A stretch of 64,000 nucleotides of DNA, taken from NCBI GenBank assembly GCA_045588365.1, contig JAZNEB010000024.1, forward strand, positions 114,854 to 178,853. The letters run 5' to 3'. This stretch comes from Clostridia bacterium. GTDB taxonomy: Bacteria; Bacillota; Clostridia; CAKSNL01; HGM11501. Both the position numbers and the translations under genes were made by a program. Below the pieces are notes generated by a model. The model was not told the origin of the DNA and made no database searches. It saw nothing but the letters and a program-made list of their open reading frames with translations. Shown here piece after piece: positions 5,716 through 48,623 of the stretch (its first letter is position 1; the number at the start of each line of letters is the position of its first letter).

Positions 5716-5741
5716 AAAAAGAAGGCGACAGCCTTCTTTTC
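5716..5741 (-). terminator. Rho-independent terminator after carD-like gene
   Basis: Minus strand: GAAGGCUGUCGCCUUC followed by UUUUUUU, immediately after the stop at 5740. Confidence 0.6.
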
Positions 5742-24286: not shown

Positions 24287-27200
24287 TTATCTGCCTAAGA
24301 GATTCATTAATCTGGTAAGCATAACTACTGCTTCTGCTCTGGTAGCTTCCTTCTTAGCACCGAAGGTTCCGTCGGGGTATCCTGAGATAACGCCCTTGTC
24401 AGCTGCCCAGTTAACCTGGTAGTTTGCATAGGTGGAAATTTCAGCCTTATCAGCAAAGCTTGCTTCGCCTGAGATTTCCCACTCTGCTCCAACCTTGGTA
24501 GCATAACGGTAAATCATGGTTGCCATCTGTTCTCTTGTAATCTTTGCATAGGGTGAGAATGTGTCTTCAGTAGTACCCATTGTGATACCCTGATTTACTG
24601 CCCATGCAACTGCATTAGCGAACCAGTCGCCTACATTTACGTCTGCAAAGTTCTCAGAGCCGTCTGATGTCTGACCTGATATCTTATAAAGAATCTGGCA
24701 GAACTCAGCTCTTGTAATATCGCTGTCGGGGTCAAAGGCTGTCTCTGACTTACCGTTTACGATATAGTCAACATACATATTGCTGATGGCTTCCTTAGCC
24801 CAGTGATTCTGAATGTCAGCAAGGTCTGTTGCCTGACGAACCTTTCTTACATAGGGATATACTGTCAGGCTGCCTGTAACTCCTGTGTTTGCATAAGGAA
24901 CTGTGTAAGCAGCGTCAAGATACCAGCCTACAAATTCGTATCCTGCCTCTACAGCGGGAGCTGAAAGAACTGTGCCCTTGGTAACTGCCTGTGTTCCGAC
25001 ACCTGAAATTACAACCTGGAACTTATCGCTTACGCCGCCGAAGCCGCCGCCACCGAAGCTTTCAGGCTTATCGTCATCGGATGAGTCGCCTCCGCCGCCC
25101 TGAGGTCTCTGAGGCTGACCGCCTGACTGCTTGAGTTCCCAAACAGCAACGAATGTCACGTCTTCATCAGGCATTACGAATGGGTCGCCTGCGCTGTAAA
25201 GAGTATATTCTTCTCCTTCTGCTACAACCTCTCCAGTCCAGTTCCAGCCCTTAAAGGTATAGCCAGTAAGCTTAAGGCTGCTTGATGCGATGGTGATTTC
25301 GTCGCCTTCCATATAGAACTTGGAAGCGGGAACGGTTCCCTTTGCACCGTGTTCGTCAACGTAGGTTACCTTACGACGGGTAACACCCTCTGCATCAGCA
25401 ATGATGTGAATGTCGCCTCTTGCGTTGAATATTGTAATTACACCGATTTCATCGCCGGGATTTAAGCTCATAAGAGATACTTCGCCGGGAACGGTTGTCT
25501 TTACATAAGAGAAGTCAAGACCGCATACAAGAACGTGTCCGTCCTGTGTGATTTCGGTAATTTCGTTGGGAAGCTCCTCTCCCTCGTGAGCTACCAATGT
25601 AACCTCTAAGGTTTCACCCTTTGTAGCTGTCGTAGGAGTATCAGCTGTTGTGGAAAGACCAACTAAGTCGGTTGTTACCTTAACTTCGCCGGGAGCAACG
25701 GCAACTGTACTTACCTTAACAACTGCATCTGCATAAAGGTCAGCAATCTTGAATTCTTCTGTCTTTGTACCCTTTCTTGTAACCTCACCCTTAACAGCAA
25801 CGTTCTTTTCTGTTGCTACTCTTTCAATAAGGTTGATGTCGGCAACGGAGAAGTTGGAGTTTCCTCTCTTCATCCAGATATAAAGACCGTCCAATTCAAT
25901 GGGATCAAATGTGATTGCCTGAAGTGTTTCATTTGCTAAAAGAGTACCTGTCTTGAAGGGAGTGTCAGCAATAACGCTGTCAACTATTGCATAGAGCTTA
26001 TATTCTCTTACGCCCTGTCCTGCTGCATAAGCATTGGGGCTTGTTAAGTGAATTCTGTGCTGCCAGCTCATGGAAGAAAGTGTAACTCTTCTTCCGAATA
26101 TAGCGGTAATATCAAGGTCGTTATTTACAGAGTCGTAGCTTCCGCCATGACCTGCTGTATCGGACCAGACATCAGTTGTATTGTTGTTATCAAATGCTCT
26201 GTGGATACCGTAGTCTCTGCCGGAATTTCTAAAGCCATTTGTGGTAAGAGTCCATGTATCATCAAACAGCAAGGGCTTTTCTTCATAGGTAGTCTGGATG
26301 TTTTCTTCGATTTCCCATACAGCCTCATATCCGTCTTCTATGATGGTTGCAACAAATACTGTATCCTCATGACGCTTTGCATCGAAGGGAGATACTGAAA
26401 CCTCACCAATTACTTCGCCTGTTTCCTTATCTACTCTCTTAGCAATAACTGTTACGTTAGCATCCTGAGAACCGAATGTTACAGAGTGGATTTCTTCTTC
26501 CACATAGCCTGCGGGAACACTTACGTCATCGCCCATAACAAAGCTCATAACGAAGTCGAATTCTTCGGGAAGAACTGAGCTTCCGTTATCTAAGAAGAAG
26601 TCCTTTGTGATAACGATTGTCTCGCCCTGTGTATTGATGTAGGAGGGGTCAACTGTGGTAATTACTTCGCCCTCTGCCACAACCCTGATTGCCGAAAGAG
26701 CAACTGCATCGTTGTAAACTACGCCGAAGGACACATCCCTGGGGTCAGTCTCTGAGAAGAGAGCTCTCTCTCCCTCAAAGGTGATTTCTGCAGGATTCAA
26801 GCTTCTTCCTGAACCGGGCTTGTAGAGACAGATTTCCATTATACTTGTAGGATTGGAAGTGGTAACAATGCAAAGTCTTAAGTATCTTGCAGTTACGTTT
26901 ACTTCCTCGCCGTTTATCATAAACTTGATGTCGTCGTAGGAATTTTTGTTTGAGCCCTTATCAAGAGTTGCCTTCCAGGTGTCTGAGGTGAGCCAGTTTA
27001 CACCGTCGTTTGATACCTGGAGATAAGCCTTATTCATTGTCTGACCGAACTGACGGTTTCCTCCGCTTACCCATACTCTGTGATATACTCTTACACCCGA
27101 GAAGGTGTGAGGAATCTGATAGTCAATTTCGATAACGGGATATGCCCCTGTTGTGCTGTCAGAGTAAATTTCAGCTGCTGCACTTTCAACTGTAAAGCCG

Positions 27201-30200
27201 CTGGATTTAAGCTTCTTGTCGTCATCGGAGTTTGTCATAATTTTTCCGTCGGCAGTTCTTCTTACAACACCTCTGTCAATGAGGTTTCCTACTCCGCCGC
27301 CGTTGGAATAGCCTGATACATACTTGATTGTGTTTGCGAAGTTATAGGGAAGAACTTCATCACTAAACAGCTTTTCACCGAAGCTTACATTAAGTACGGC
27401 AGACATTTCGCCGCCAAATACTTCGATTGTTGTTGCTACACCTGCAGTCTTTATTGCACTCAGTGCGCCCTTCTTGATGGTGAGCTTCATTGTTTCTGCA
27501 TCAAATGTATAGTTGGATGAAGAAACTGTCGCTCCGCCAACCTTAACGCCTGTTACGGGAAGGTCGGTATAAACAACAACTTCTTCATTTGCATTTGCCT
27601 TCTCAAGAGTTACAGAGGTCATAACGCCGCCGAACTCATTGTAAATTCTGAGAGAAGGTGCAAGGAATCTGATTGATGCCGCTGTAGCATACTGCGTATT
27701 TGAGATATAAATTCTTAAGTATCTTACTTCTGCATTCTTAGAGAAGCTGAGGTCGGTAGTTCTTGCACTGCCTGTTGCCTTTCCGTCGTAAAGCTTCTCC
27801 CATGTTTCAAAGTCATCAGAGCCAAAGATTTCAACCTTGGACCAGTTAGGCTGATACTTTCCTCCTTCATATCTTGCATAGTAACGAAGACCGCCGATTT
27901 CTGCTGTAGCACCAAAGTCGATGTCAAGATAATGGTTGTTGCCTTCGTTTGTTTCACCGTGGTAACGGTAACCACCTGTTAATTCTGCCAATGTTGATCT
28001 GAAGAATGCATTTACGGGGTGGTTTGCTCCCGCATTGTTCCATACAGAGTCAGGTCTTACTGCAAAATCGGGATATTCTGTGATGATATCAATTTCATCT
28101 GAAGCAAAGGTAGCATCGGTAGATAATGCATTTGCCTTTGTTGCCCAGTAACCCGAAAGAATTACCGAATAGGTGAGATATGAATTGTCCTCAAACTTAA
28201 CCAAAAGCTGAAGCTTTCCTGTTTCAAGACCCAACGCCTTATATACGTCAAATGCCTTACGGAAGTCGCTTCTTCCGATTGTAATTGTTTCTTCATTTGC
28301 TGTGAAGGGAATTACAGTTCCGTCAGATTTCAATACTACCTTGGTAACTGAAAGACCCTTTATGTTCTTAAGCTCAAGCTTTTCTGTTCTTGCTACAGAA
28401 GTGCCATTGTAGTAGCTGAACTTGAACTCGGTCTCTGTGCAGTCGTTAACCTTCAAGGTGGTCTCACTTACTTCGCCGCCTGCGAAATAAACCTTTAAGG
28501 GATATGTTCCAACTTCAAATTCTAAGAAGTATTCCTGGTCGATCGTAATTTTGTCTGCTTCAACCAGATATCTGGTGTTGGAAATTTCTTCTCCGTTAAA
28601 TTCAACCTTGGAAATTGCCTTTCCTGAAGGATAGGTAATATAGTTAACAACAACGTCTTCCTGAAGCTCGGGAGCACCCTTTTCAAACTCTAAAGTGCCC
28701 AATATTCTTGAAGAAGGCTTTAAGATACGGATAGCATTTGCTGTGGGATAGCCTGTATTACCGATATAGATTCTTAAGTATCTTACTTCGGTATTGCCAT
28801 CAAACCACAAATCGTTAATTCTTTCGCTTGTTGCGGAGCCTTCATAAAGGGTTTCCCAAGTTTCAAAGTCAGTTGAACCGGAAATTACAATCTGGCTCCA
28901 GTTGGGATCCAAGAAGGGAAGTCCGGTGGTGCCGTTGGTAGCAATTCTTGCAATGTAACGAACGCCGCCTACGGTTACGTTTTCACCGAAATCAACATCA
29001 AGGTAGTGGTTTCTTCCTTCATCGGTTGAAGCATGATAACGCTGACCTGCAGCCTCCTCTGAGATTTCTTCCTGGAAGAATGCGCCTGCAGGATGGTTAC
29101 TTACAGCATTGTTCCATACAGAGTCGGGTCTTATTGCGAAGTTTTCATAGTCAAGAATGTTAATTTCATCTGTATCAAAGGTTGCATTTACTGTCAAAAC
29201 ACCTGTCAAATCTGCTGCTGTTACCCAATCACCGGAAATGGTAATGGTATAAGTTAAGGTTGTATCATCCTCGAAGGTAACTACTACCTTATGCGCACCT
29301 TCTTCCAATCCCATTGCTGCATATACGTCAAATGCCTGACGGAATGCTGTTCTTGTGATTGTGATATTGCTTGTGTTTGCAGTAAAGGGAATTTCAACTG
29401 TTTCATCTTCAAAGAGAGTAACCTTGGTTACGTTAAGTCCCTTTACGTTATTGAGAACTATTTCTTCTGTTCTTCTGACTGAAGTTCCTGACAAGTAGGA
29501 GAACTTAAATTCTGTCATTAAGCTGTTTGCAACCTTAAGCGTTGCGGTAACAGGATCAGCAATATCATTAAAGTAAAGCTTAAGTTCATAGTCGCCTATA
29601 TTCATTCCAACTAAGCTTTCCTTTTTGATTGTAACTGTTCCGTATTCACCAATAAAGTAATCCTCGGAAGAAATTTCTTCTCCTTCAAGTTCAATCTTGG
29701 AAAGAGTCTTTCCGGAAGGATAGGTTACATAGTTAATTACAACATCATCTGCAATCTCTGTTGCTCCTGCTTCAAAACGTAATTCATTTGTTACTCTCGA
29801 GGTGGGCTTCAAGAAGCTTAAGGAGTTTGCTGTTACGTGAGCATTTACACCCTCGATGTAAATTCTTACATATCTTACGCTTGCATTGTCGCTAAATCCA
29901 AACTCGTTTATTCTCTGGCCGTTATTTGCAGCCCCTTCATAAAGCTTTGTCCATGTTTCAAAGTTTGTAGAACCGTAGATTATAACCTTCTTCCAGTCGG
30001 GAGTATAGTTTCCGCTTTCAAGCCTTGCCTGATAGCGCAAGCCGCCTACGGTTACAGTTTCACCGAAGTCAACATCGATATAGTGGAGCTTTCCTTCGGT
30101 TGTTTCGGCGTGGTAGTTATATCCGGTTACACCCTCTGCCGCTCTGGGATAGAAGAATGAGCTCATGGGATGGTTTTTCCATGCGTTATTCCATACAGAG

Positions 30201-33200
30201 TCTGCTCTTACAGCAAAGTTGTCAAGCTCTGTAACGTCAATTTCGTCATCATCGTAAGCTTTTAAAGAAGCATCAGACATTAATGTTATTTCCTGGAAGT
30301 CTGCCTTGGTGAACCAGTGACCTGTCATATTGATGGTGTAGATCATAGATACTCCGCCTTCAAACTCAACCTTTACTTTAATCTGTCCGCCATCCTTGCC
30401 CATTTCCTTATAAACATCAAATGCCTTACGGAAGTTGCTTCTTGTAATAGTAATTGTTTCTTCATCAGCGGTGAAAGGAATTTCCACTGTATTGTCCTCT
30501 AAAAGAGTAACCTTTGTTGCTGTGAGTCCCTTTACATTGTTTAATGTAATATTCTCCGCTCTTGTAAGAGATGTACCACTTCTGTAAGTGAACTTAAATT
30601 CAACCTGGCTGAAGTCAATTACATCAATGCTTGCAGATAAAACTTCACCTGTTCCAAAGGTTATCACAACCTCATGGCTTCCCTTTTCAAGAGAAAGTGC
30701 AAATTCTTCTGAAAGAACAATCTTTTTATCAACTAAAGTATAGTCTGTATTTAATGTAAGTTCTTCTTCGTCAACCTCTACCTTGGTAACCTCGGTAGCA
30801 TCAACTGTAAGAGTAATGTCGTCTATTATAACATCCTCAGGAACGGAAACGTCAATCTGTACATTTCCTTCATTTGTAATTCTGGGAAGATTTGCAATCT
30901 GAGCTGCAGTCTTGGTTACAACATCCTCATCATCAATGGGATCAATAAGACGGATTTCGGAGAATGCCCATACGTTCTGAACATAATTCGGATTATTTTC
31001 TGCAATTTCAGTCGCTTCAACCTTTAAGTATCTTGCCTTAAGGTTGTACTGTGTTCCGCCGTATACAGCCATCATGTCCTGACTTAAGTTGATTCTTGCA
31101 CCCGAGAACATATCAGACTTTAACCAGGTTTCTCCGTCCTCAGAAACATAGATATAGCCCTTGGTCATGTTCTGATGACCGCCGTTGTTTTCGAACAATT
31201 TGGTGCCATCGCCTGAAATTCTGCCGTAAACTCTTACACCGGAGAAGGTCTTCTCTTCGCCTAAGTCTATCTCAATCCATGCTGTTGTGGCATCGGCAGT
31301 TCCCTGTTTATTTGCTGCAACTGCATTTGCGATTTCAACAAACTGGCCTGATATTTTTCCGTAAGCGTTATCAAAAGCATAGATAAGCTTGTTAAGTGAG
31401 CTTGCTGTAGCAGTACCATTTGTGCTACCCAGTGTCAGTGCACTTTCTAAAGTTTCTTTTGCAGGAAGGTCTATATCTCCCTTTGCTAAGGGGTTAAAGT
31501 CGCCACCGATAAAGTTATGCGAAAGTTCTTCGCTCGGCCAATCTTCCTTATCCCTGGGCTTTAACACTTCAATTTCCATTATACAGGTGTACTTTGTTCC
31601 ACCGTTCTGGGTTGCGAGAGTTACAACCTTGATACCAACTAATTCCTCAGCCTCTTCAAGGTATATGCTCTTAGGCTGTCTGTCATAGCCTTCTGAACCC
31701 TGAACGTCGTACTTGGTATATAAAATTCTTCCGTCAATAATATGTCTTTCTTCGGTGCCGTCCGCAGTTTTATATATACCTATAAGTCTTACATCCATGG
31801 GGCTTGATCCATGGCTTGCGTCAGGTCTGTGATAGAGTCTTACACCGCCAACGGGAATTTCCTCATTGAACATAATTGTAACGGTCTTTGCATCTAAAAG
31901 TCCCTGTCCTGTTGCAGTTGTTTGGTGGTTTCCGTGCCAGCCGTTGGTGTAAAGGTTTCCTAATGTAACTCCGTCAAAAAGTCGGGGAGTCCATGTCTTG
32001 ACATTGGATTCAACAGGCTCTGCAGTTTCTCCGTCGTGAGTTGTTGAACCAACCTTGGTATTTGCCATATCTATATATACGGAAGGATCATAGAAGTCAG
32101 ATAAGCCTGCTGTCTGTGCAGGAGTCAAAGCAGCTTCATTTGCAATGGGATCTAAAAGTCTGATTTCAGAAACTGTCCAGTTTCCTGCTTCGCCACCGTA
32201 AAGCTTAGTTGCTACAAGCTTTACATATCTTGCCTTTATGTTCTTGGCTTCTTTGCCGAACTTTGTGGGAACATCCTGATAAAGAGCTGTTTTGCTTGCT
32301 GCAGCAAAGCCGTCTGTACTATACCAGTTTTCACCGTCTGAGGATAACAGGAGATAACCGTGTGTGAGTCCCTGCATACCTGACGCATAAACAGTTGTGG
32401 CATTTTCACGTCTGTTGTAAACTCTTAAGCCCGAGAAGGTAATCTCTCTGCCTAAGTCAAACTCAATCCACGCCTTTTCGTTTGCAGCTGTATTTACACA
32501 GTACAAGTATTCAAAATGACCGGGAGATGCACCTGTATAGCCCATTAAGTTATCATAAAGATATTTCGAAGGCCACTGAACGGGATTTTCCGCATTCTCT
32601 GCATCCGAACCGATTGTAACGGTTACAGGAGGCATGGAGAAATCACCGTCTGCAAAGGTCAAAGGATAGGTGATTTCTGCAGAAGGTCTCAATTCAACTG
32701 CCTTGGGCTTTAAGATTTCAATTTCCATAAGAGCAACAAATGAAGGATTTGTTGCAGGATTTTCACCCTGGAATACAAGGTCAATACCCACAAGGTCCTC
32801 TAAGGGGTCATCAAAATAGATGCTCTTACCGTCTAAGTCATAGCCAGAAGCATTTAATGTGAATGTAACATGATGTCTTGAAAGGGGAAGCTTCTTTGTT
32901 CCGCCGTTTCCGTCATCATAAATTCCTACAACGTCAAAGTAGCCGGGTGTTCCTGTTCCATTCTGTCTGGGATAAAGTCTTACACCGGCAACAGTTTTTT
33001 CGCCGTCAATAAAGTCGTCATTGAACATAACTGTAATGGTTCTGCCTGCATCATCTGTACCGCTTGCAGACTGCCAGCCGTAAAGGTTGAATGCAGAAGA
33101 CTCTATAACTCCGTCAAAGAGCTGAGATATATTATAGCTGCTTGCTAAAGCAGAACCGTAAGCAGAATTTTCAAGGTCGATATATTTATCCGCCTTGTAG

Positions 33201-34717
33201 TAATCCGTTCCGCCCATTGCTACTTTTGCTTCAGCTTCTTCCAAAAGTGCAACATAATTTGTAGCAGTATCTCCGTCTTCTTCATATCCGCCGGAAAGGG
33301 CGAGCTTCTGAACACCCGAAAGCTCATCATAAGCCTCTCTTGCAGCTTCAACTAAGCCCTTGTTTGTTTCAAAAGCATCGTCATCTTCAAAATCCAAATC
33401 TTCCAGTGCTTCAATCTTGGATATAACTGCAACAGCGGAAGCCTCTTCCTTATAAGAGGAAAGATTAGCCATATCAATTATATCATTGCCTCTGGGAGCC
33501 AGGAAACGGATTTCAGAATTTGCCTGATGTATACTACCTCTGTCTATAACAAGTCTTATGTATTTGGCGTTAACCATATCGTATGGGGTTTCGCCAAAGC
33601 TTACATAAAGGTCCTGTTTAAGAGTATTTTCCGCTGTAACAAGGTCAGCTCTTGCCCAGTTAGTGCCGTCTGCAGAAACCTCAAGGTAACCGCCGGAAAA
33701 TCTCTGATTTCCGCCGCCGTTTGACCAAGGTACATACTCTCCATCCACAACAGATGTTCTCTGATAAAGTCTGATACCGGAAAAGCTGAAAGGAACGTAA
33801 GATGTGATTGTGAAGGTAGCTGTGCAGCCTTCTTTCAAAGCTCCGTCCACTTTTTCAATGGCGTTCTGATAGCACATATATGTACCAAGATTATAGTCAG
33901 TAAGATTAGAGATAGCGCCTTCAATTACCGCATTAGCCGTTCTTTCTCCCTGTCTGGAAACTTCAATAGAATAGAAAGCAGGAGCAAAAGCCGGAACTTC
34001 TCCGGCACCTACGCCCTTGCCTGCGAAATCTGTATAATTCTCAGAAGGTTTCAATATATCAAGACCTGCAAATGCAGTAAAGCCAACACCGGGATTTCTT
34101 CCGCCCGAACCGTCAGCAACATGTGCAACAACTATTTTAAGTCCTTTAACGGTAGCATCGGCACCTTCTGCAAAGTAAACGTTTTTACGAACATTTGCAG
34201 CGTTGTCTCCGTCCTTTTCATAGTCTCCGACATCTCCAGAGAAAAGGATTTTTTCCCCGTCTTCATAAATACCTTTAACTATAATAAAGCGGGGAGCTCC
34301 ACCCAGATTATTTCTGGGCCAGATACCAATACCGCCAACTTCAATTCCTCCGTCGGTAAATTTTTCTTCATTAAACATAACCGTAATGGTCTTCTTAGCC
34401 AAAGCCGCTTCGGTAACTCCTGCAGCATCGGTCGTTGAATGCCATATGGTTGTGTAATTATCACTGTCAAAGAGGTTTGAAGCGCTTCCCTGAGCAACAC
34501 TTCCCACTTCACAGCTTTCTATGTAAGTTGCATAGTCATAGTAATCTGCTTCGGAAGCAAAAAGTTCTGCTTCTTCCTCCTCATCTTCAAATTCCTCTGC
34601 CTCAATAACTTCGGGTTCAAGTTCTGCCTCTTCCCCGAATATGGGCATGGTTGTAAAACCTGTGCATAAAGATACTAACATACACAAGCTTAAAACAACA
34701 GATAAGATTTTCTTCAT
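24287..34717 (-). CDS. Giant (3476 aa) SLH-anchored surface protein with multiple F5/8 type C (discoidin)-like domains, Ig-like repeats, two Listeria-Bacteroides-type repeats and three C-terminal SLH domains
   Basis: Signal peptide MKKILSVVLSLCMLVSLCTGFTTMPIFG. Recurring ...TITVMFNEE...GG(V/I)RLY.R... discoidin-like units; ...YEFVGWYLDAAYTV... (Flg_new-like); C terminus has three SLH-like repeats (AISNMYVDYIVNGKSETAFDPDSDITRAEF..., FADVNVGDWFANAVAWAVNQGI..., FADKAEISTYANYQVNWAADKGVISGY...). Confidence 0.85.
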   Translation of the reverse strand: MKKILSVVLSLCMLVSLCTGFTTMPIFGEEAELEPEVIEAEEFEDEEEEAELFASEADYYDYATYIESCEVGSVAQGSASNLFDSDNYTTIWHSTTDAAGVTEAALAKKTITVMFNEEKFTDGGIEVGGIGIWPRNNLGGAPRFIIVKGIYEDGEKILFSGDVGDYEKDGDNAANVRKNVYFAEGADATVKGLKIVVAHVADGSGGRNPGVGFTAFAGLDILKPSENYTDFAGKGVGAGEVPAFAPAFYSIEVSRQGERTANAVIEGAISNLTDYNLGTYMCYQNAIEKVDGALKEGCTATFTITSYVPFSFSGIRLYQRTSVVDGEYVPWSNGGGNQRFSGGYLEVSADGTNWARADLVTAENTLKQDLYVSFGETPYDMVNAKYIRLVIDRGSIHQANSEIRFLAPRGNDIIDMANLSSYKEEASAVAVISKIEALEDLDFEDDDAFETNKGLVEAAREAYDELSGVQKLALSGGYEEDGDTATNYVALLEEAEAKVAMGGTDYYKADKYIDLENSAYGSALASSYNISQLFDGVIESSAFNLYGWQSASGTDDAGRTITVMFNDDFIDGEKTVAGVRLYPRQNGTGTPGYFDVVGIYDDGNGGTKKLPLSRHHVTFTLNASGYDLDGKSIYFDDPLEDLVGIDLVFQGENPATNPSFVALMEIEILKPKAVELRPSAEITYPLTFADGDFSMPPVTVTIGSDAENAENPVQWPSKYLYDNLMGYTGASPGHFEYLYCVNTAANEKAWIEFDLGREITFSGLRVYNRRENATTVYASGMQGLTHGYLLLSSDGENWYSTDGFAAASKTALYQDVPTKFGKEAKNIKARYVKLVATKLYGGEAGNWTVSEIRLLDPIANEAALTPAQTAGLSDFYDPSVYIDMANTKVGSTTHDGETAEPVESNVKTWTPRLFDGVTLGNLYTNGWHGNHQTTATGQGLLDAKTVTIMFNEEIPVGGVRLYHRPDASHGSSPMDVRLIGIYKTADGTEERHIIDGRILYTKYDVQGSEGYDRQPKSIYLEEAEELVGIKVVTLATQNGGTKYTCIMEIEVLKPRDKEDWPSEELSHNFIGGDFNPLAKGDIDLPAKETLESALTLGSTNGTATASSLNKLIYAFDNAYGKISGQFVEIANAVAANKQGTADATTAWIEIDLGEEKTFSGVRVYGRISGDGTKLFENNGGHQNMTKGYIYVSEDGETWLKSDMFSGARINLSQDMMAVYGGTQYNLKARYLKVEATEIAENNPNYVQNVWAFSEIRLIDPIDDEDVVTKTAAQIANLPRITNEGNVQIDVSVPEDVIIDDITLTVDATEVTKVEVDEEELTLNTDYTLVDKKIVLSEEFALSLEKGSHEVVITFGTGEVLSASIDVIDFSQVEFKFTYRSGTSLTRAENITLNNVKGLTATKVTLLEDNTVEIPFTADEETITITRSNFRKAFDVYKEMGKDGGQIKVKVEFEGGVSMIYTINMTGHWFTKADFQEITLMSDASLKAYDDDEIDVTELDNFAVRADSVWNNAWKNHPMSSFFYPRAAEGVTGYNYHAETTEGKLHYIDVDFGETVTVGGLRYQARLESGNYTPDWKKVIIYGSTNFETWTKLYEGAANNGQRINEFGFSDNASVRYVRIYIEGVNAHVTANSLSFLKPTSRVTNELRFEAGATEIADDVVINYVTYPSGKTLSKIELEGEEISSEDYFIGEYGTVTIKKESLVGMNIGDYELKLYFNDIADPVTATLKVANSLMTEFKFSYLSGTSVRRTEEIVLNNVKGLNVTKVTLFEDETVEIPFTANTSNITITRTAFRQAFDVYAAMGLEEGAHKVVVTFEDDTTLTYTITISGDWVTAADLTGVLTVNATFDTDEINILDYENFAIRPDSVWNNAVSNHPAGAFFQEEISEEAAGQRYHASTDEGRNHYLDVDFGENVTVGGVRYIARIATNGTTGLPFLDPNWSQIVISGSTDFETWETLYEGSATSERINDLWFDGNTEVRYLRIYIGNTGYPTANAIRILKPSSRILGTLEFEKGAPELQEDVVVNYITYPSGKAISKVEFNGEEISNTRYLVEADKITIDQEYFLEFEVGTYPLKVYFAGGEVSETTLKVNDCTETEFKFSYYNGTSVARTEKLELKNIKGLSVTKVVLKSDGTVIPFTANEETITIGRSDFRKAFDVYKALGLETGKLQLLVKFEDNSYLTYSVILSGYWATKANALSTDATFASDEIDIITEYPDFAVRPDSVWNNAGANHPVNAFFRSTLAELTGGYRYHGETNEGNNHYLDIDFGATAEIGGLRYYARYEGGKYQPNWSKVEIFGSDDFETWEKLYDGKATGSARTTDLSFSKNAEVRYLRIYISNTQYATAASIRFLAPSLRIYNEFGGVMTSVTLEKANANEEVVVYTDLPVTGVKVGGATVSSSNYTFDAETMKLTIKKGALSAIKTAGVATTIEVFGGEMSAVLNVSFGEKLFSDEVLPYNFANTIKYVSGYSNGGGVGNLIDRGVVRRTADGKIMTNSDDDKKLKSSGFTVESAAAEIYSDSTTGAYPVIEIDYQIPHTFSGVRVYHRVWVSGGNRQFGQTMNKAYLQVSNDGVNWLTSDTWKATLDKGSNKNSYDDIKFMINGEEVNVTARYLRLCIVTTSNPTSIMEICLYKPGSGRSLNPAEITFEGERALFSETDPRDVSFGVVYNDAVALSAIRVVAEGEVITTVDPSYINTQGETIVITKDFFLDNGSSVLPEEFDFVMSFVMGDDVSVPAGYVEEEIHSVTFGSQDANVTVIAKRVDKETGEVIGEVSVSPFDAKRHEDTVFVATIIEDGYEAVWEIEENIQTTYEEKPLLFDDTWTLTTNGFRNSGRDYGIHRAFDNNNTTDVWSDTAGHGGSYDSVNNDLDITAIFGRRVTLSSMSWQHRIHLTSPNAYAAGQGVREYKLYAIVDSVIADTPFKTGTLLANETLQAITFDPIELDGLYIWMKRGNSNFSVADINLIERVATEKNVAVKGEVTRKGTKTEEFKIADLYADAVVKVSTVAVAPGEVKVTTDLVGLSTTADTPTTATKGETLEVTLVAHEGEELPNEITEITQDGHVLVCGLDFSYVKTTVPGEVSLMSLNPGDEIGVITIFNARGDIHIIADAEGVTRRKVTYVDEHGAKGTVPASKFYMEGDEITIASSSLKLTGYTFKGWNWTGEVVAEGEEYTLYSAGDPFVMPDEDVTFVAVWELKQSGGQPQRPQGGGGDSSDDDKPESFGGGGFGGVSDKFQVVISGVGTQAVTKGTVLSAPAVEAGYEFVGWYLDAAYTVPYANTGVTGSLTVYPYVRKVRQATDLADIQNHWAKEAISNMYVDYIVNGKSETAFDPDSDITRAEFCQILYKISGQTSDGSENFADVNVGDWFANAVAWAVNQGITMGTTEDTFSPYAKITREQMATMIYRYATKVGAEWEISGEASFADKAEISTYANYQVNWAADKGVISGYPDGTFGAKKEATRAEAVVMLTRLMNLLGR
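27790..30790 (-). repeat. Three tandem internal repeats of about 1 kb (about 335 aa each) inside the giant gene
   Basis: The protein blocks (T/V)EFKFSY.SGTS..R(T/A)E.I.L(N/K)N(V/I)KGL..TKV.L..D.TV.IPFTA.....ITI.R..FR.AFDVY...G recur at about aa 1310, 1640 and 1975. The DNA copies are diverged by roughly 20-30%. Confidence 0.6.
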
Positions 34718-41372: not shown

Positions 41373-41409
41373 TAAAAAAAAGCTGAACGACAGTGTCGTT
41401 CAGCTTTTT
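41373..41409 (-). terminator. Terminator after the Cys-rich giant SLH gene
   Basis: AGCUGAACGACA-G-UGUCGUUCAGCU flanked by A/U runs. Confidence 0.55.
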
Positions 41410-41414
41410 ATCAC

Positions 41415-44400
41415 TTATTCATTTTTAAGATAACCGGTGAAAAATTCTGCGATTTCAGCTCTTGTTGCAAAAGCCTTAGGCATAAGATTTCCTTTGCTTC
41501 TTTCTTTTATAAATCCTTTGCCGACTGCCCAGTTCAGTGAAGAAATTGCATATTCAGAAATTTCAGAAGCATCATCAAAGTGGAGATTTTCCTCCATTGT
41601 AAGAGCGTTCATTCCTTTGTATACAGCATATCTTAACATAATTGCTGCAAGCTGTTCACGGGTAACATTTTTATCCGGTGCAAATTCGTTTTCCGTTACG
41701 CCGTTTACAATACCGTTCTGCTTTGCCCAGGATACTGCATTTCCGTAATACGCCCCCATATCCACATCGGAGAAGGGTATTGAACGATTTGTTGCAGGCT
41801 CTCCCTCTGCACGATAAAGAATTGTAACAAGCATTGCTCTTGTGAGGTTACCTTCCGGTTCAAATTCGTCATCCGATACTCCAACCATAAGATTATTGCT
41901 TACAACATATAAAACATAAGGGTAGAACTTATCTGTTTCCTTAACATCTTTGAATTCAATTTTTTCCACCTTATTCCATTTAGCAAAAAGTGTAAAGCTC
42001 TTTATCACCTTTGTATTAAAATCATAAGCTTTTTCCAGTAACTCATCGGTATACCAACCACCAAATTCAAATCCTTCTCTTACGGGAGCTTCAGGCTCTG
42101 CAATAGTTTCATTCATTTTCACAGATTTCTTTTCCACATTACTTCCGCCATTGGTTTCAAACTTCACAGTATAAACGACACTTCCTCCGCCACCGCCTGT
42201 GGCAACTCTCTTAGGTGCGTCTTTATCATTATATACAACTGCATAGGTTGAGAATTTATCCGTTTTGAAGGAGAAGCTGTTATCCCCCTTGTTGAAATTG
42301 CCTTCTATTACATCTGTAACAATATTTCCTGTTTCATCCTCGTGAATACGGATAATTCTGTAAGTTCTCTTTTTTGATTTATCCGTGTTTATAAGTTCTT
42401 CGGGAATCTCAATCGTGATAGTTATTTTGCCCGAAGTCTCCGTAATCTGTGTTTCTGCTACTTCATTATCTGAAACAACTTCCTTGAACAGTTCAATATT
42501 AAGATACATACCGATTTCCGTTGTTTCATCAAGCCCGTTTTCTTCCTCTCCGATTACAGCTTCCGCCACTTCCTTATCAGTTGCAGAAACTTCATTGACC
42601 GGAATATCTGTAACATCAAGATAAACTCCTACTGTAGCATTTCCACTTGCAACAGATGCCTGTTCCTCTTCAGTAAGAACACTGTTAAACAATTCCACTC
42701 CGTTCTGAACTTTAAGTGTTGCATTTGCTCCATTGTTTTCTGCTTTTGTTGTATTTGTAACAGCCTCTTCAACACTCTGTTCTACTATAAGAGTATCGTA
42801 TGCACCGCATTTGCAGGTTCTTTTAAAGTTACCTTCTCTGTCTTCTTTCCAGTCCCCAAAGCTATGAGCTTTTACAACTTCTTCAGAACATACAGAGCAT
42901 TTTCCGCTGTGCGTTCCATCCTTATTATCAGCCCAGGAATTCACCTTGTGCTCAGCCTTTTCTGCTGCCGTACAGGTTTCGCCGTTTTCACAATAGCGTA
43001 TATGGCCGCTTTCGCCGCCTGTTTCCCAAGCTCCAAAGCGATGTTTGTGCTTAAGCATGGGAATTGCTTCATCCATGCTGTGACTGCATACAAGGCAGGT
43101 ATAGGTAATTACGCCTTCTTCGGTTTCTGTTGCTTCCTTTGTTATTTCGCCGTCATTCCACATATGGTTCTGACGCTGATATGCCGTGCATCCGTTTTCG
43201 TTTATGCAAACGTGTGTATGTGTTTCATCATCATCGGCAATCCATTTACCAAAGCTGTGGTCGCACACAATTTTTGAAATAACCTCGGATTTTTCAAATC
43301 CACAATCAACGCAGGCATATTTCTTAATACCGGTTTCTGTTACTGTTGCCTCTTTTACTGTCTCGCCTTCATCTAAAGCATGCTCCCTGGTGCGTTCTCC
43401 TTTGCAAACAGAACAGGTCTTTTTATGAGCAGTGCCTCCTTCTGAAGTCCACTTGCTCCATTCATGGTTTTCTGTTTCAGATATACCGCAGCCTTCACGC
43501 TTACAGCTATGCGAATGTACATCTGCCACCGCATTAACGCCGGTATCTTCCCATTCATCCCAGTCGTGGTCTAAAGCAGGAAGTATTACATCTTCCTCAT
43601 TAAGCTTGCTGTTTCCTTCTATATCACTAAATTTGCCATTACATCCTTCGCAGCAGTAATAGGAAATGTTTCCGTCTTCGGTACAGGTAGCAGCTTTTCC
43701 GGGGGTATTCGTCATTTTATGCTTATGTTCAAGAACCGGTATTTCACGTTCATCAATATGGCTATTGTCATTCTGACATATGCGCTGTTCCGTACCTTCC
43801 GTTGTTTCTGTGGGAGCGACAACTACTTCCCAGTCACTCCATTTATGACCGAGGGCAGGACGTGTTGTATAATTTTCATAGCCGCATACATCGCAGGATA
43901 TGTAATTCTGTCCCTCATCATCGCAGGTCTCGGCCTGAACTACTTCGCTTTTAATGTTATGCGTTTCCGTTTCGGAGAAATCGCAGCCCTCGTTAAGGCA
44001 AAAATGTATATGCTCATCTGCATCTTTGCTTTCCCACTTGCCTAAATTATGATTATCAGGCTCAGATGCCACACTTTCTTCCTTGTTTTCCGGACAATGC
44101 TGGCAGGTGTAGAGTATGGATCCTTCTTTTACGCAAGTAGGCTCTGTTATGCTCTTTCCATTGTCCCATTCGTGTTCTTCTGTGCGTGTTCCCTCACAAA
44201 CAGAGCAGGTCTTTTTGTGATTTTCTTTTCCGTCTGTATCCCACTTTCCAAAGTCGTGGGTGTCTTCTTCCGTTTCACCGCATTCCTTTACAAGACAGAT
44301 TCGGCTGTGCTTATCTTCACCGACATCTTCCCACTTGCTCCATTCGTGCTCTGTAACTTTAATAGCTTCGGTATTTGTAGCGCCACATTCGCTTGTACAG

Positions 44401-46688
44401 GTATATGTTGTTTCGCCTTCTTCATAGCAGGTAGGAGCTTTTGTTTCCGTTCCGTCATCCCAGGTGTGGTCTTCGGTTTTAGTTTTGCCGCATTCACAGC
44501 TTCCTGTATGGGTGCCGTCTTCGTTATCCTTCCAGTTTGTAAATTCGCAGGTGTGATTATCTACTGTAGGAACATCGTAACGGTAGAGGCTTATGGCATA
44601 CTGGTTATCATTGGTGGGTGTGGTATCAGTTTCGGAATCCCAACCCTCAGAACCTACCAGAGCCCAGTCTTCACCGCAGATAAAGTAATATTCGGTATCG
44701 CCATCTTCGTTGACGTACTCACGGAAACGAAGTGTAAACATGGCTCCGCCTATAGCGTAGTAGTTGGCAGGATACATAAGCAAGTCGCCTTCTGCTATGT
44801 TTTCATCTATGTTGCCTCGCGCTACCTGTTCGGCGTGGGTATAACCGTCCATATCGTCACGGTATGTGTCATCATCCACCTCTGTAGTGTAGAAATCGAT
44901 TGCCCACGCACCGCCGTCCCACATACCATACTCACCATTAACATAACGTGGAACACCCATATAGCCGGTATTATAAAGGCTATAACTCTGGAATGAATAA
45001 ACGCAATAGTTGGGAAGCAAAGGCATAACCGTAGTCAATCCCATCTCCGTAAAATTCCATTGTTCGGGATTTACGTCAAGCATAAATTCCGAAGGAACTG
45101 CATTTCCCACATAATTCTGATTGAGCAGTGAAATGCTTCCGTCCTCATACGGAACAACTTCAATGGCATTGATGTTTTCACCGCAATCAATAATTCCCTG
45201 TTCATTGGTTTCTCCCGAAGTTTCTTCATCAAGACCTCCCAAAGCAAAATACTTATCGCCGATTTTTGCAACAAAGATATACATATCTTCTTCGTTGATA
45301 TCATCAAGTGAAGTTATTTTTGTGTAAACGGGATTTTCGAGACCGCAGTTATCGCATTTTCCCGTATCTGTATTAAATGCGTGACCTGTAGCCGGAACCT
45401 TTGAAGCCATAGCTTCTTCCCAATACTCATTTTCTTTGCTCTCATCCATAAACATTCCGCAATCTTCACAAAGCCAATATGGGCCGGAACCCGGTTCAAA
45501 GCAAGAAGGTTCTATTACCTCACCTTCTATGTGTATTGCATTCGGATGCCATATCTCGCCGCAGTTGTCACAATAGTTATCATCGCCGTATTCATGACCT
45601 GGAGCATAAACGGTGAGATAATATTCATAATTGCTGTAACCTTCGGGAAGCACGATATACTCCGTTGCTTCGGCGTTGGCAAAATATATCTTACAATCCT
45701 CGCAGTACCAGTATTCAAGGTTTCCGTCCTCTGTGCAGGTTGCTTCAACTGCCGCATTATGTATCATATCCGGGTGCTCACAACGTTCCATATACAGCAT
45801 AATGTTATGGGCACGGTTGTCAATAGCGTCACCGTTTTCATCCTCGGACCAGGAAAGTACCGCGGAAAATTTCGGCTGAGCACCACTGTCATCAAACAGT
45901 ATCAGTGGGCTGTTAAGTGCCCATCCGAAAAGATATCCCTTGTCAGCTGCGTAATCACTCAGTTCCGTACTCTGTTCAAAACGGATGGACTGGGGAAAAA
46001 CGTCATAAGAGGTATCTACGTCGCAGAGATTCTCTCCGTGAACCACGATTTTTCCGTCCAAAACCGTCATATATCCATTATCGGGCGAAAGGATATATGT
46101 ATCCGAAAGTTCTTTATAGGTGAAAAACTCTACTGTATCAGAATCTACCGTAACAGAACCGTCTTCTTCAACAAATTCGGAAAGGTCTATTGCCACACGT
46201 GAACCGTCTTCATTTGTTTCGTTGCCCATTGCGTAGAGCTTTCCGTTATACTCTCCCACAAACAGGAATTTAAAACCGTCCAGATATGGGGTTAATGTGT
46301 GCATACCGCTATTTGCATAGTCATCCTCGTCATAATAAGGATGCTCGGAAGGCACAAAAAGTTCAAAATTCTCTTCAGTTTTACTGTACTCACAGCCCAC
46401 ACAATCATTGCTGTGTACTCCGGGGGTGATAACAACATCTGCCGGTGAAATTTCCTCAGTCATCCCCTCGTCAGAGTAACATTTATCGCAGGTATAATAA
46501 CTGCAGTACCAGAACTCGATATTCCCCGGCGTGGTGCAGTTGCCCATAGTAGCCTCGATATGGGTAACACTGCCGCTGTGCGATGCATGAGCATTTTCTT
46601 CCGCAAGTGCAACCGCCGGCATCAAGCCCGCAATCATAATTATAGCCATAACTACGCCCATCAGTTTCCTGAATTTTCTTATTTTCAT
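41415..46688 (-). CDS. Giant (1757 aa) secreted Cys/His-rich repeat protein with a Listeria-Bacteroides repeat and three C-terminal SLH domains
   Basis: Signal peptide MKIRKFRKLMGVVMAIIMIAGLMPAVALA. About 20 reiterated modules of about 30 aa of the form H.W......H...C...C / E.TC...G...Y.C..C; ...EGFEFGGWYTDELLEKAYDFNTKV... (Flg_new-like). C terminus has three SLH repeats (FKDVKETDKFYPYVLYVVSNNLMVGV..., FSDVDMGAYYGNAVSWAKQNGIVNGV..., FDDASEISEYAISSLNWAVGKGFIKE...). Confidence 0.8.
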   Translation of the reverse strand: MKIRKFRKLMGVVMAIIMIAGLMPAVALAEENAHASHSGSVTHIEATMGNCTTPGNIEFWYCSYYTCDKCYSDEGMTEEISPADVVITPGVHSNDCVGCEYSKTEENFELFVPSEHPYYDEDDYANSGMHTLTPYLDGFKFLFVGEYNGKLYAMGNETNEDGSRVAIDLSEFVEEDGSVTVDSDTVEFFTYKELSDTYILSPDNGYMTVLDGKIVVHGENLCDVDTSYDVFPQSIRFEQSTELSDYAADKGYLFGWALNSPLILFDDSGAQPKFSAVLSWSEDENGDAIDNRAHNIMLYMERCEHPDMIHNAAVEATCTEDGNLEYWYCEDCKIYFANAEATEYIVLPEGYSNYEYYLTVYAPGHEYGDDNYCDNCGEIWHPNAIHIEGEVIEPSCFEPGSGPYWLCEDCGMFMDESKENEYWEEAMASKVPATGHAFNTDTGKCDNCGLENPVYTKITSLDDINEEDMYIFVAKIGDKYFALGGLDEETSGETNEQGIIDCGENINAIEVVPYEDGSISLLNQNYVGNAVPSEFMLDVNPEQWNFTEMGLTTVMPLLPNYCVYSFQSYSLYNTGYMGVPRYVNGEYGMWDGGAWAIDFYTTEVDDDTYRDDMDGYTHAEQVARGNIDENIAEGDLLMYPANYYAIGGAMFTLRFREYVNEDGDTEYYFICGEDWALVGSEGWDSETDTTPTNDNQYAISLYRYDVPTVDNHTCEFTNWKDNEDGTHTGSCECGKTKTEDHTWDDGTETKAPTCYEEGETTYTCTSECGATNTEAIKVTEHEWSKWEDVGEDKHSRICLVKECGETEEDTHDFGKWDTDGKENHKKTCSVCEGTRTEEHEWDNGKSITEPTCVKEGSILYTCQHCPENKEESVASEPDNHNLGKWESKDADEHIHFCLNEGCDFSETETHNIKSEVVQAETCDDEGQNYISCDVCGYENYTTRPALGHKWSDWEVVVAPTETTEGTEQRICQNDNSHIDEREIPVLEHKHKMTNTPGKAATCTEDGNISYYCCEGCNGKFSDIEGNSKLNEEDVILPALDHDWDEWEDTGVNAVADVHSHSCKREGCGISETENHEWSKWTSEGGTAHKKTCSVCKGERTREHALDEGETVKEATVTETGIKKYACVDCGFEKSEVISKIVCDHSFGKWIADDDETHTHVCINENGCTAYQRQNHMWNDGEITKEATETEEGVITYTCLVCSHSMDEAIPMLKHKHRFGAWETGGESGHIRYCENGETCTAAEKAEHKVNSWADNKDGTHSGKCSVCSEEVVKAHSFGDWKEDREGNFKRTCKCGAYDTLIVEQSVEEAVTNTTKAENNGANATLKVQNGVELFNSVLTEEEQASVASGNATVGVYLDVTDIPVNEVSATDKEVAEAVIGEEENGLDETTEIGMYLNIELFKEVVSDNEVAETQITETSGKITITIEIPEELINTDKSKKRTYRIIRIHEDETGNIVTDVIEGNFNKGDNSFSFKTDKFSTYAVVYNDKDAPKRVATGGGGGSVVYTVKFETNGGSNVEKKSVKMNETIAEPEAPVREGFEFGGWYTDELLEKAYDFNTKVIKSFTLFAKWNKVEKIEFKDVKETDKFYPYVLYVVSNNLMVGVSDDEFEPEGNLTRAMLVTILYRAEGEPATNRSIPFSDVDMGAYYGNAVSWAKQNGIVNGVTENEFAPDKNVTREQLAAIMLRYAVYKGMNALTMEENLHFDDASEISEYAISSLNWAVGKGFIKERSKGNLMPKAFATRAEIAEFFTGYLKNE

Positions 46689-46896
46689 ATCCGTCTCTCC
46701 TTTTCATATTGCATAATCGCACTTTCCGTTGACTAAAACAACCTCTTGTGCTATAATCTTATTATAAAATAAGTTTTATAATAAAACCCCACACTTTTTT
46801 AAAAAATTGGTGTGGGAAAGATGAAAAAGTGTGGGATTTGGTGTGGTACAGGTTGAAAAAGCTGCTTTTAAGAGGCGGGATCTTCTGGGAGATAAT

Positions 46897-47952
46897 ATGA
46901 TGAAAAAGAATTTTTCCGGCATACTTTTAATGCTTATTATGGCGATTTTCCTATCAGGCTGCAGCACTATCGGAAGCAAAACAGCCAATATGTCCGTTAT
47001 TTACTTAGTAACTTCGATAGTTTCTTTGCTGCTTTTAATTGCATACTTCATATTTATAGAAAAGAAGGAAATCTGGTTTTCGCTTTTGTTTATTTCGGTA
47101 TTCATTGTTAATACAGGTTATTTTTTACTGTCTGTTTCTGAAACTCTCGAAAAAGCACTTGTCTCTAACCGCATTGCTTATTTGGGCTCGGCATTTTTGC
47201 CCTTGTCAATGCTTATGACAATTATAAATGTTTCCAGGCTTAACTACAGAAAGTGGGTTCCTGCTGTTTTACTAGGAATTACACTCATCGCCCTTTTCAT
47301 TGCTGCCAGCCCAGGATATAGTGATATTTACTATAAATCTATTACACTTGAAGTCATAAACGGGGTATCCTTCCTTAAGAAAGAATATGGAGCATGGCAT
47401 GCTTTTTATCTTTATTATCTGGTATTATATTTCGCTTTGATGATCGCCATAACTATCTATGCTGCAGCAAAAAGAAATATTAAATCGGGTATTCAATCGG
47501 CAATAATTTTAGTATCGGTATTCGTAAATCTCTGCGTATGGTTGTTGGGCCAGCTTATAGATATGAACTTTGAATTTTTATCCATATCCTACATAATCAG
47601 CGAGCTGTTTCTCATTTCTGTATATCTGATGGTACAGAATGTCGAAAATCGTTTGAATGCGGTTTCGGAAAGTTCAGCTGTTTCAGAAGACTCCTCAACC
47701 GGAAAAGAAACAATCTCTGAAATGTATATGGAAAAATGCAGATATCTCGAAAAAAATGTTTCAACTCTTACACCAACCGAAAAAGTTATTTATAATTTTT
47801 ATCTTTCAGGTAAATCCACCAAAGAAATCATGAAGGAACTGAACATAACCGAAAACACCTTGAAATTCCACAATAAGAACATTTATTCAAAACTCGGGGT
47901 AACATCCAGAAAACAGCTTTTGGAATATGTAAATATCCTTAAATCAATTTAA
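46897..47952 (+). CDS. Membrane-bound LuxR-family transcriptional regulator (polytopic N-terminal domain + C-terminal HTH_LuxR)
   Basis: Six or more TM helices, then TPTEKVIYNFYLSGKSTKEIMKELNITENTLKFHNKNIYSKLGV (GerE/LuxR HTH); divergent from the Cys-rich SLH gene. Start taken at the MMKKNF ATG. Confidence 0.7.
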   Translation: MMKKNFSGILLMLIMAIFLSGCSTIGSKTANMSVIYLVTSIVSLLLLIAYFIFIEKKEIWFSLLFISVFIVNTGYFLLSVSETLEKALVSNRIAYLGSAFLPLSMLMTIINVSRLNYRKWVPAVLLGITLIALFIAASPGYSDIYYKSITLEVINGVSFLKKEYGAWHAFYLYYLVLYFALMIAITIYAAAKRNIKSGIQSAIILVSVFVNLCVWLLGQLIDMNFEFLSISYIISELFLISVYLMVQNVENRLNAVSESSAVSEDSSTGKETISEMYMEKCRYLEKNVSTLTPTEKVIYNFYLSGKSTKEIMKELNITENTLKFHNKNIYSKLGVTSRKQLLEYVNILKSI

Positions 47953-47960
47953 AAGAAAAT

Positions 47961-47990
47961 AAAAGAGTCCGAAGGACTCTTTTATTTTCT
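47961..47990. terminator. Bidirectional terminator between the LuxR regulator and the lipoprotein gene
   Basis: AAAGAGTCC-GAA-GGACTCTTT flanked by A/T runs. Confidence 0.6.
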
Positions 47991-48623
47991 TTTAAATTTT
48001 GTTTCTTTGAGGATTTCCCAGAACATATCAACCGTAGCTGCCTCTTTTCCCTCTTCCTCTCTGGAATTTGAGACAAACTCAAGACTGTTTCTTCCAAGCT
48101 CATAGTTAACATAAAAAGTTGCTTTCGAAAGGGCCTCGGGAGTATCCGCAGAATAAAGCTTATTTCCGTCGGTTTTATAGTAAAGCTCTGCATCAACATT
48201 ACCTAAAACTCCCAGAACGTCAACGCTTTCTATCATTCCTTTTAAAAGCTCATCCTCGCTCATACCCTTGGATGCAAGCAAATCGCTTAAATTCACATTA
48301 AGTTCATCCGCTAAAGACCCAAGGTACGCCAAAAGCGGCTTTCTTAATATCTCAAGCATCTTTTCCGATGCCTCGTCAAAGGTCTCCTCATCAAGATACA
48401 TCTTATATTTCCCGTCGTTGCCGAACTCGTAATACATTCCCACTTCGAGACCTTTATAGTTAACCTTTGTAAAATCCTCCCCTACCTCGGAGAACATTTC
48501 CTCGGCAAGCTCACTTATGTCAAGCTTTCCGTACCAGGTTCCAACCAGTGTTTTCTCGTTGCAGCCCGTAACAAAAAGTGTTGTTATAAAAATCAGGCAC
48601 AATATAAATGTGATTTTTTTCAT
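47982..48623 (-). CDS. Lipoprotein of unknown function
   Basis: MKKITFILCLIFITTLFVTGC lipobox; 213 aa, acidic. Confidence 0.5.
   Translation of the reverse strand: MKKITFILCLIFITTLFVTGCNEKTLVGTWYGKLDISELAEEMFSEVGEDFTKVNYKGLEVGMYYEFGNDGKYKMYLDEETFDEASEKMLEILRKPLLAYLGSLADELNVNLSDLLASKGMSEDELLKGMIESVDVLGVLGNVDAELYYKTDGNKLYSADTPEALSKATFYVNYELGRNSLEFVSNSREEEGKEAATVDMFWEILKETKFKRK

Follow-up and report, generated by a model that had tools for sequence, protein, structure and literature searches.

In a 64,000-nucleotide stretch of DNA from an uncultured gut Clostridia bacterium (GenBank assembly GCA_045588365.1, contig JAZNEB010000024.1, positions 114,854 to 178,853; hereafter, the window), a minus-strand gene at 41415-46688 encodes a 1757-amino-acid (aa) surface protein, and the divergent gene at 46897-47952 encodes a membrane-bound transcription regulator. 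Taking the locus as a whole, we regard a wall-anchored, metal-clamped stalk with a dedicated, motif-binding regulator as the best explanation, and as a reasonably probable one. The protein would be secreted and attached to the cell wall via its C-terminal S-layer homology (SLH) region, in a head-stalk-anchor layout. Its stalk, aa 712-1303, would consist of 17 small three-stranded beta-sheet modules standing end to end, each junction being clamped by a tetrahedral metal site, most likely zinc, whose ligands would be a second-strand His or Cys and the CxnC knuckle of one module and the first His of the next. With about 16 such clamps in the array and several more in the N-terminal units, the metal sites would replace a hydrophobic core and yield a stiff rod, which may hold two lineage-specific, Cys-poor head domains, X1 and X2, away from the wall.

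The Cys/His module array and its predicted metal sites

The protein carries 23 Cys/His units in total, 17 of them contiguous (aa 712-1303) and six of them N-terminal (aa 34-104 and 305-455). Type A units (n = 10) read H-x(2-5)-W-x(8-14)-H-x3-C-x(1-6)-C-x(7-8)-H, type B units (n = 6) read H-x-W...[PA]-T-[C]-x2-[ED]-G-x5-Y-x-C-x(2-3)-C, and type C units (n = 4) are long; the remaining three are short H...CxxC knuckles, each located behind a type C unit. The array contains 40 Cys, 34 His and 18 Trp per 592 aa, whereas the Cys-poor regions of the same protein contain 5 Cys and 7 His per 943 aa. Strict versions of the motif patterns gave 8 and 7 matches, compared with means of 0.02 and 0.17 over 2000 shuffles; the module array is real, far beyond chance. 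The preliminary description of this DNA, made from its letters alone, had counted about 20 tandem Cys/His modules on an SLH protein, and this observation is borne out. Its picture of a uniformly Cys-dense N-terminal region is not, as the Cys/His units there alternate with the Cys-poor X1 and X2.

A conserved Cys/His register, which was checked by alignment, is present across 39 aligned A-B-A-B segments: conservation is complete, or reaches at least 90%, at the internal His, at both knuckle Cys residues and at the His that opens the following module. In some of these segments, Cys replaces the first His of the next module. Modules within the array have diverged and are of several types, and Tandem Repeats Finder detected no DNA-level tandem repeat within it. 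The sole Cys change relative to a 97.8% identical orthologue is C1012Y (nucleotides 43653-43655), which affects the additional Cys that starts a CC-E-G-C knuckle and thus fits C1012 not being a ligand.

The preliminary description had proposed structure prediction of consecutive modules, and an AlphaFold2 (AF2) model of aa 1075-1218, i.e., four modules in the order A-B-A-B with the 39-sequence alignment as input, is confident and all-beta, with a mean pLDDT of 93.6. DSSP assigned three strands per module. The predicted template modelling (pTM) score is 0.57, as a rod shape is expected to score so. The modules are predicted from this model to be single three-stranded beta-sheets set end to end. 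A Foldseek search of the model against the PDB returned no analogue (best TM-score at most 0.19), and a search against BFVD returned only two matches, both with the same modules. These two entries, A0A8S5QLF9 and A0A8S5SUG5 (an SLH fragment and a leucine-rich repeat (LRR) protein from metagenomic 'phage' bins; Foldseek E 4.5e-9 and 3.1e-6, respectively), probably stem from bacterial DNA that was binned as viral, or from genes next to prophages.

The assignment of ligands was approached through covariation among 646 distinct type B modules from 230 proteins. When a type B module has the T-[C/H] ligand, a lone His opens the next module in 589 of 590 cases; of the 56 modules missing this ligand, 42 are followed by one that opens with [H/C]-x-H (Fisher p 1e-52, a value that overstates independence, as do all p-values here, related sequences and repeats being among those counted). 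Of the type A modules that have the internal His, 216 of 217 have a His (195) or a Cys (21) 7-9 residues past the knuckle, and the array-terminal modules, which have no next module, are without both the internal and the following His. That the next module makes up for a missing ligand with an additional His or Cys at its start argues for a four-ligand metal clamp at each junction. The simplest reading of these sequences is that each site keeps four ligands, of which module i gives three and module i+1 gives one, and 16 inter-module metal sites are accordingly predicted in the 17-module array. Within the modelled segment, the predicted ligand sets would be H1088/C1092/C1095/H1103 and C1126/C1129/C1142/H1144.

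Domain layout, heads and anchors

The minus-strand reading frame is a real gene, since nucleotide differences from its orthologue concentrate at the third codon positions of that frame (20/16/50 at the first, second and third positions). This orthologue, with 1761 aa and 97.8% identity, lies at the same locus on a contig of a fecal Clostridia metagenome-assembled genome (L001). Open reading frames on the opposite strand, e.g., 44049-44996, lie inside this conserved gene with its minus-frame bias, and their dismissal as artefacts in the preliminary description holds. The layout of the gene is as follows.

41415-46688, minus strand: surface-protein gene, 1757 aa (open reading frame list and the 97.8% identical orthologue)
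46602-46688, minus strand: predicted signal peptide, aa 1-29, AVALA/EE cleavage (basic N-terminus and hydrophobic core, by eye from the translation)
46377-46589, minus strand: N-terminal Cys/His unit, aa 34-104, type C plus a short H..CxxC knuckle (motif register)
45777-46376, minus strand: head domain X1, aa 105-304, Cys-poor, without a family match
45324-45776, minus strand: Cys/His units, aa 305-455, two of type C with a short knuckle after each (motif register)
44556-45323, minus strand: head domain X2, aa 456-711, an orphan, beta-rich (protein sequence search and AF2)
42780-44555, minus strand: contiguous 17-module Cys/His array, aa 712-1303 (register alignments, AF2, IgA protease match, covariation)
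42204-42779, minus strand: domain Y, aa 1304-1495, Cys-free, preceding the anchor (phmmer; no Pfam match)
41979-42173, minus strand: Flg_new (Listeria-Bacteroides repeat), aa 1506-1570, behind a GGGGG linker (PF09479, E 5.6e-19)
41436-41921, minus strand: three SLH repeats, aa ~1590-1751, cell-wall anchor (PF00395, E 9.6e-31, three stretches)
41377-41409, minus strand: terminator-like hairpin with a T-run, 15-bp stem, 3' of the gene (sequence scan)

From its N-terminal sequence, the protein is taken to be Sec-type secreted. The SLH region also matches the Sap SLH structure in the PDB, which places the protein in the SLH-anchored class, and the Flg_new repeat matches the B-repeat of internalin B in the PDB (E 3.8e-6). 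Aa 1-1500 have no match in Pfam or NCBIfam, and searches of the whole protein and of isolated units against Pfam, NCBIfam and PADLOC did not place the modules, X1, X2 or Y in any family. An exact-protein look-up of the 1757-aa sequence returned no record.

The head domains are confined to close relatives. Homologues of X1 come from the close family only, and an exhaustive search of 1.84 billion proteins with X2 gave 13 matching representatives, 11 of which extend past its first ~38 residues with 60-84% identity. Two results on X2 stand against the explanation given above: its AF2 model is mostly beta and of low confidence (pLDDT 65, pTM 0.73), and Foldseek of this model against the PDB gave no match at E<=0.001 and no functional lead. 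A beta-trefoil-like fold for X2 was considered and is not trusted, the matches being weak (ryanodine receptor (RyR) N-terminal domain, TM-score 0.32/0.46; Kunitz soybean trypsin inhibitor). Likewise, an internal duplication relating X1 to X2 is not established, their similarity being short, at their starts, with E 0.02. The L001 orthologue has a four-residue NEDG insertion in X2, at aa 495. The protein had been called adhesin-like in the preliminary description; the head-stalk-anchor layout fits this label, but no ligand or binding activity can be inferred.

Orthologues keep the X head, the stalk and Y, whereas the anchor changes. Domain Y was found by phmmer in 32 relatives, ahead of dockerin, sortase-type or transmembrane (TM) anchors. 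The anchor is SLH here, a dockerin at L073 (2704-6516), at L074 (2669-6799) and in P0122 and P0139, and a PQTGD sorting signal plus TM helix in P0124-P0126. Family members differ also in stalk length, with knuckle counts of 6, 7, 9, 11, 12, 14 and 17; the syntenic orthologue at L073 has 9 modules and a dockerin, versus 17 modules and SLH here.

Two further SLH proteins are encoded in the window. One, at 24287-34717 (minus strand), is a giant of 3476 aa with five F5/8 type C (discoidin) domains, CBM_X2, Flg_new and three SLH repeats, and is without Cys/His modules (12 Cys, no CxxC). The other, at 2858-5743 (minus strand), has 961 aa and a long Ser/Asp/Glu-rich repeat of the SESDSSSE type near its N-terminus. 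The host appears to anchor several large surface proteins through SLH.

The divergent regulator and its shared intergenic motif

The following features lie on the regulator side of the locus.

46897-47952, plus strand: regulator gene, 351 aa, with a lipobox signal, a seven-transmembrane (7TM) sensor region and a GerE/LuxR helix-turn-helix (HTH) (Pfam, hydropathy, orthologue alignment)
46786-46848, strand not assigned: candidate operator, GTGTGG[GT]A at 46810-17, 46829-36 and 46841-48 (plus strand), with an inverted copy at 46786-93
46729-46757, plus strand: promoter-like site toward the regulator, TTGACT-17-TATAAT with a TG, 11/12 (consensus scan)
46761-46766, minus strand: TATAAT, a -10-like hexamer toward the surface-protein gene, with a poor -35 overlapping GTGTGGGG (by eye)
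47949-47995, bidirectional: terminator-like hairpin, 20-bp stem, 3' of the regulator gene (sequence scan)

The divergent gene had been described as a polytopic membrane protein ending in a LuxR/GerE HTH, and Pfam confirms it: HisKA_7TM (PF16927) scores 54.7 bits, over aa 59-262 of the longer open reading frame with a GTG start, and GerE (PF00196) scores 52.5 bits against a cut-off of 23.5. Hydropathy shows about seven TM helices behind the N-terminal lipobox signal. The start at ATG 46897, as originally given, is favoured over GTG 46831 because a GGAGA ribosome-binding site lies 4 nucleotides upstream of the ATG. The lipobox, L19-S-G-C22 (46951-46962, plus strand), has the form L[ST]GC in five of six orthologues and is unusual for a polytopic transcription regulator.

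The C-terminal HTH resembles those of NarL, FixJ, CsgD and BglJ. However, response regulators of the NarL/FixJ type carry an N-terminal receiver, whereas this protein starts with HisKA_7TM, and quorum-sensing LuxR proteins carry an autoinducer-binding domain, which this protein is without. Pfam searches detected neither a Response_reg receiver domain nor an autoinducer-binding domain, which makes the protein a one-component membrane regulator and neither a two-component response regulator nor a quorum-sensing LuxR. NCBIfam gave HTH-only matches far under their cut-offs, e.g., SdiA at 22 bits against 350. Like the LuxR/GerE one-component membrane regulators in which HisKA_7TM (PF16927) is fused to GerE (PF00196), the protein has both domains, over their cut-offs, with the N-terminal lipobox in addition. 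The literature on HisKA_7TM (PF16927) held nothing on function, and none of the proteins with this architecture seems to have been studied.

The two divergent genes are separated by a 208-bp intergenic region with three direct copies of GTGTGG[GT]A and one inverted copy. Together these copies make up a 16-nucleotide inverted repeat that is 94% complementary, and of the 13 copies of GTRTGGG in the whole window, three lie here within a span of 48 bp. The motif recurs between the two genes at six other loci with this gene pair (L065, L066, L068, L072, L073 and L074), and at L068 it forms a perfect 9-bp inverted repeat, CCCCATACT-N3-AGTATGGGG. Across the intergenic regions of the paired loci, GTRTGGG occurs 13 times in 1801 bp versus 0.39 expected, a 33-fold enrichment that was computed on the same regions on which the motif was defined. 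The TTGACT...TATAAT arrangement is also present at L073 and L074. On the strand facing the surface-protein gene, a sigma-70 scan gave no full match.

The gene pair itself is conserved. A divergent regulator adjoins an X-head family member at L065, L066/L067, L068, L072, L073 and L074, with different flanking genes each time, and at L003, the regulator is co-directional and upstream of the family member, i.e., the pair is kept despite a changed orientation. In total, the pairing recurs in eight independent loci, with orthologous regulators of 37-69% identity. Module-array proteins without the X head (P0005 and P0010) have no such regulator nearby, which indicates that the pairing belongs to the X-head family and not to the modules as such. 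No precedent for a conserved regulator pairing of this kind was found in the literature searched. We infer that the one-component regulator most likely binds the GTGTGGG repeats. As the motif overlaps the -35 position of the surface-protein gene and lies 3' of the regulator's own promoter, its placement would fit a regulator that activates the surface-protein gene and represses its own gene, in response to a signal presumably sensed through the 7TM region.

An alternative is that the two genes are neighbours with no regulatory link, the regulator controlling itself or other genes and the motif reflecting common ancestry. Several observations lean this way and weigh against dedicated regulation. 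The regulator family is large (at least 3125 members); one close homologue, at L075, pairs with an unrelated 878-aa protein, and another, at L076, pairs with no large protein. Family loci L004, L005 and L069 have no adjacent regulator, the motif was defined after the fact, and the promoter assignments are consensus matches. However, the pairing persists down to 37-44% regulator identity and amid entirely different flanking genes, the motif is retained where the remaining intergenic sequence has diverged, including the perfect inverted repeat at L068, and L003 keeps the pair after a change of relative orientation. We therefore consider unlinked neighbours unlikely, and the dedicated regulation suggested in the preliminary description is reasonably supported by the eight loci with differing flanks together with their shared, enriched motif.

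Two side observations concern this neighbourhood and its relatives. The hairpin at 47949-47995 separates the regulator from a convergent 213-aa putative lipoprotein (47982-48623, minus strand; signal ending VTGC), which has no Pfam match and whose predicted 3' end overlaps the hairpin. At L069 (1-8142), three large genes of the surface-protein kind (>1786, 893 and 713 aa) follow one another on a single strand, and no regulator is seen beside them.

Relatives of the modules, their role and their meaning

A search of the sequences of solved structures identified one relative of the modules, the IgA protease of Thomasclavelia ramosa (9qa6_A; UniProt Q9AES2), whose ZBD1/ZBD2 match by phmmer in two stretches (E 1.6e-10) aligned over C-A and A-B units. 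These regions were named ZBD1/ZBD2 in one 2025 paper (PMC12237041) and CTD2/CTD4 in another (PMC12415215), both of which describe the region as an uncharacterized metal-binding "periscope" fold. The IgA protease units were reported as predicted zinc sites of the H2C2 and C3H types, located where subdomains meet, with zinc occupancy being a prediction 'pending experimental validation' (PMC12237041), and small-angle X-ray scattering of isolated CTD2 was consistent with an extended rod (PMC12415215). As the modules were already noted in 2025 in one IgA protease, they are not unprecedented; their family is barely characterized, and the present protein is an unusually long member. The preliminary description had placed them in no named family, which is correct for Pfam and NCBIfam, with ad hoc names existing in the two papers (PMC12237041, PMC12415215).

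We note four differences between the T. ramosa IgA protease and the protein described here. First, the protease has 3 + 2 modules split by a beta-barrel, whereas the present protein has 17 unbroken modules and six more. Second, the head of the protease is an M64 peptidase, whereas two orphan domains take this place here. Third, the protease is anchored by a sortase motif, versus SLH. Fourth, a regulator is conserved beside the gene here, whereas none is reported for the protease.

More broadly, the module family comprises at least 3614 proteins at E<=0.001 among 8000 candidates examined, from hosts in Oscillospiraceae, Lachnospiraceae, Ruminococcaceae, Erysipelotrichaceae and others. In these relatives, the modules are accompanied by cohesin, dockerin, SLH, Flg_new, CAP, LRR, peptidase and lectin-like domains.

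The metal-binding reading of the preliminary description gains indirect support from the near-invariant register, the His/Cys swaps, the compensatory relocation of the fourth ligand and the homology to the predicted H2C2/C3H sites. Against it weigh two points: the solved IgA protease structures end at residue 876, so that the modules are not resolved in them (PMC12237041), and the ligands here are assigned through sequence covariation. Metal identity and occupancy are predictions, with zinc the most likely metal.

The modules could also be functional in themselves and more than a passive spacer, with ~20 high-affinity sites capturing, buffering or sensing zinc or another metal, or binding a host or glycan ligand. 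The density of Cys and His in the array is high, and the PNAS authors raise the possibility that environmental zinc bears on function. However, the predicted sites are four-coordinate Cys/His sites, typical of structural, slowly exchanging zinc, and no zinc-uptake genes lie beside the surface-protein locus in the window. Thousands of proteins carry the modules beside unrelated heads and anchors, e.g., cohesin, dockerin, CAP, LRR and peptidase domains, and a generic scaffold fits this spread better than a specific binder. A direct role in metal handling or ligand binding thus seems improbable. That the cysteines are instead disulfide-bonded, knottin- or EGF-like, with incidental His and no metal, is suggested by an extracellular, Cys-rich protein whose short modules superficially resemble disulfide-rich repeats, yet this knottin-like option of the preliminary description is not supported and is very unlikely, as the His positions are conserved as strongly as the Cys positions, His and Cys interchange at the same columns, the relocated fourth ligand is His or Cys equally, intra-module Cys pairing would leave the conserved His unexplained in modules that mostly have 2 Cys + 2 His, the hosts are strictly anaerobic gut Clostridia (Gram-positive), and the IgA protease has 24 Cys with no disulfide in experimental or predicted structures (PMC12237041).

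Returning to the metal-clamped stalk, its modules resemble zinc ribbons and C2H2 fingers (Zn_ribbon_15, zf-C2H2, zf-met, PF23674) in that a beta-hairpin bears a CxxC knuckle, which has His/Cys partners. The ligands of zinc ribbons and fingers close one domain, whereas here they would bridge two consecutive modules, and the present modules are extracellular and tandem and not nucleic-acid binding, unlike classical zinc fingers. The 1757-aa protein had no match at E<=1 to Pfam zinc families, including RYYR-CCHC (PF23674) and C2H2, and the best Pfam match of isolated units was Zn_ribbon_15, at 22.8 bits, under its cut-off of 28.9. Some relatives, unlike this protein, gather summed sub-threshold matches to RYYR-CCHC, Tad3, zf-C2H2 and zf-met; in P0008, P0012 and P0149, many weak partial matches add up to whole-protein Pfam scores above threshold for C2H2 zinc fingers, RYYR-CCHC and Tad3, the last being an anti-Thoeris phage protein, and one source labels a module-family member RpoP. 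These RpoP, Tad3 and C2H2 labels look misleading, arising from an unmodelled repeat. The literature search found nothing on the function of RYYR-CCHC.

The layout also recalls periscope proteins (SasG/Aap G5-E, Sgo_0707 SHIRT; PMC8201768, PMC9704523), which have the same head-stalk-anchor arrangement on the Gram-positive surface. Their stalks are single-layer beta-sheets with no large hydrophobic core, as in the predicted module stalk, and are variable in length among relatives, as is the stalk here (6 to 17 modules). However, the stalk of a canonical periscope protein consists of near-identical DNA repeats, whose number grows and shrinks, whereas the present array varies in length without DNA repeats, which indicates the behaviour of a variable-length stalk and not a canonical periscope repeat. 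Rigidity is proposed here to come from Cys/His metal clamps; the zinc sites of Aap, in contrast, involve no Cys and mediate dimerisation.

What the present locus adds is an uninterrupted 17-module array, a ligand-wiring rule derived from covariation, and a conserved unit of regulator and motif. A more general picture is tentative and rather doubtful at this stage: the modules may represent a widespread extracellular fold of gut Clostridia that has little core and whose junctions are closed by zinc clamps shared between neighbours, in which stalk stiffness and head display would depend on zinc; with the lipoprotein-type 7TM-LuxR regulator acting via GTGTGGG repeats, the stalk would form a self-contained sense-and-display cassette for the orphan head.

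The modules are found in at least 3600 predicted proteins of gut and rumen Clostridia and have neither a database family nor an experimental structure. Because it is long and uninterrupted, the 17-module array suits structural work and metal analysis better than the 3 + 2 modules of the IgA protease, and the covariation provides a specific, testable wiring rule, in which module i supplies three ligands and module i+1 the fourth. The misleading RpoP, Tad3 and C2H2 zinc finger annotations would be corrected by a family model made for the modules. Finally, the regulator and its motif offer a handle on how uncultured gut anaerobes control the display of large surface proteins.

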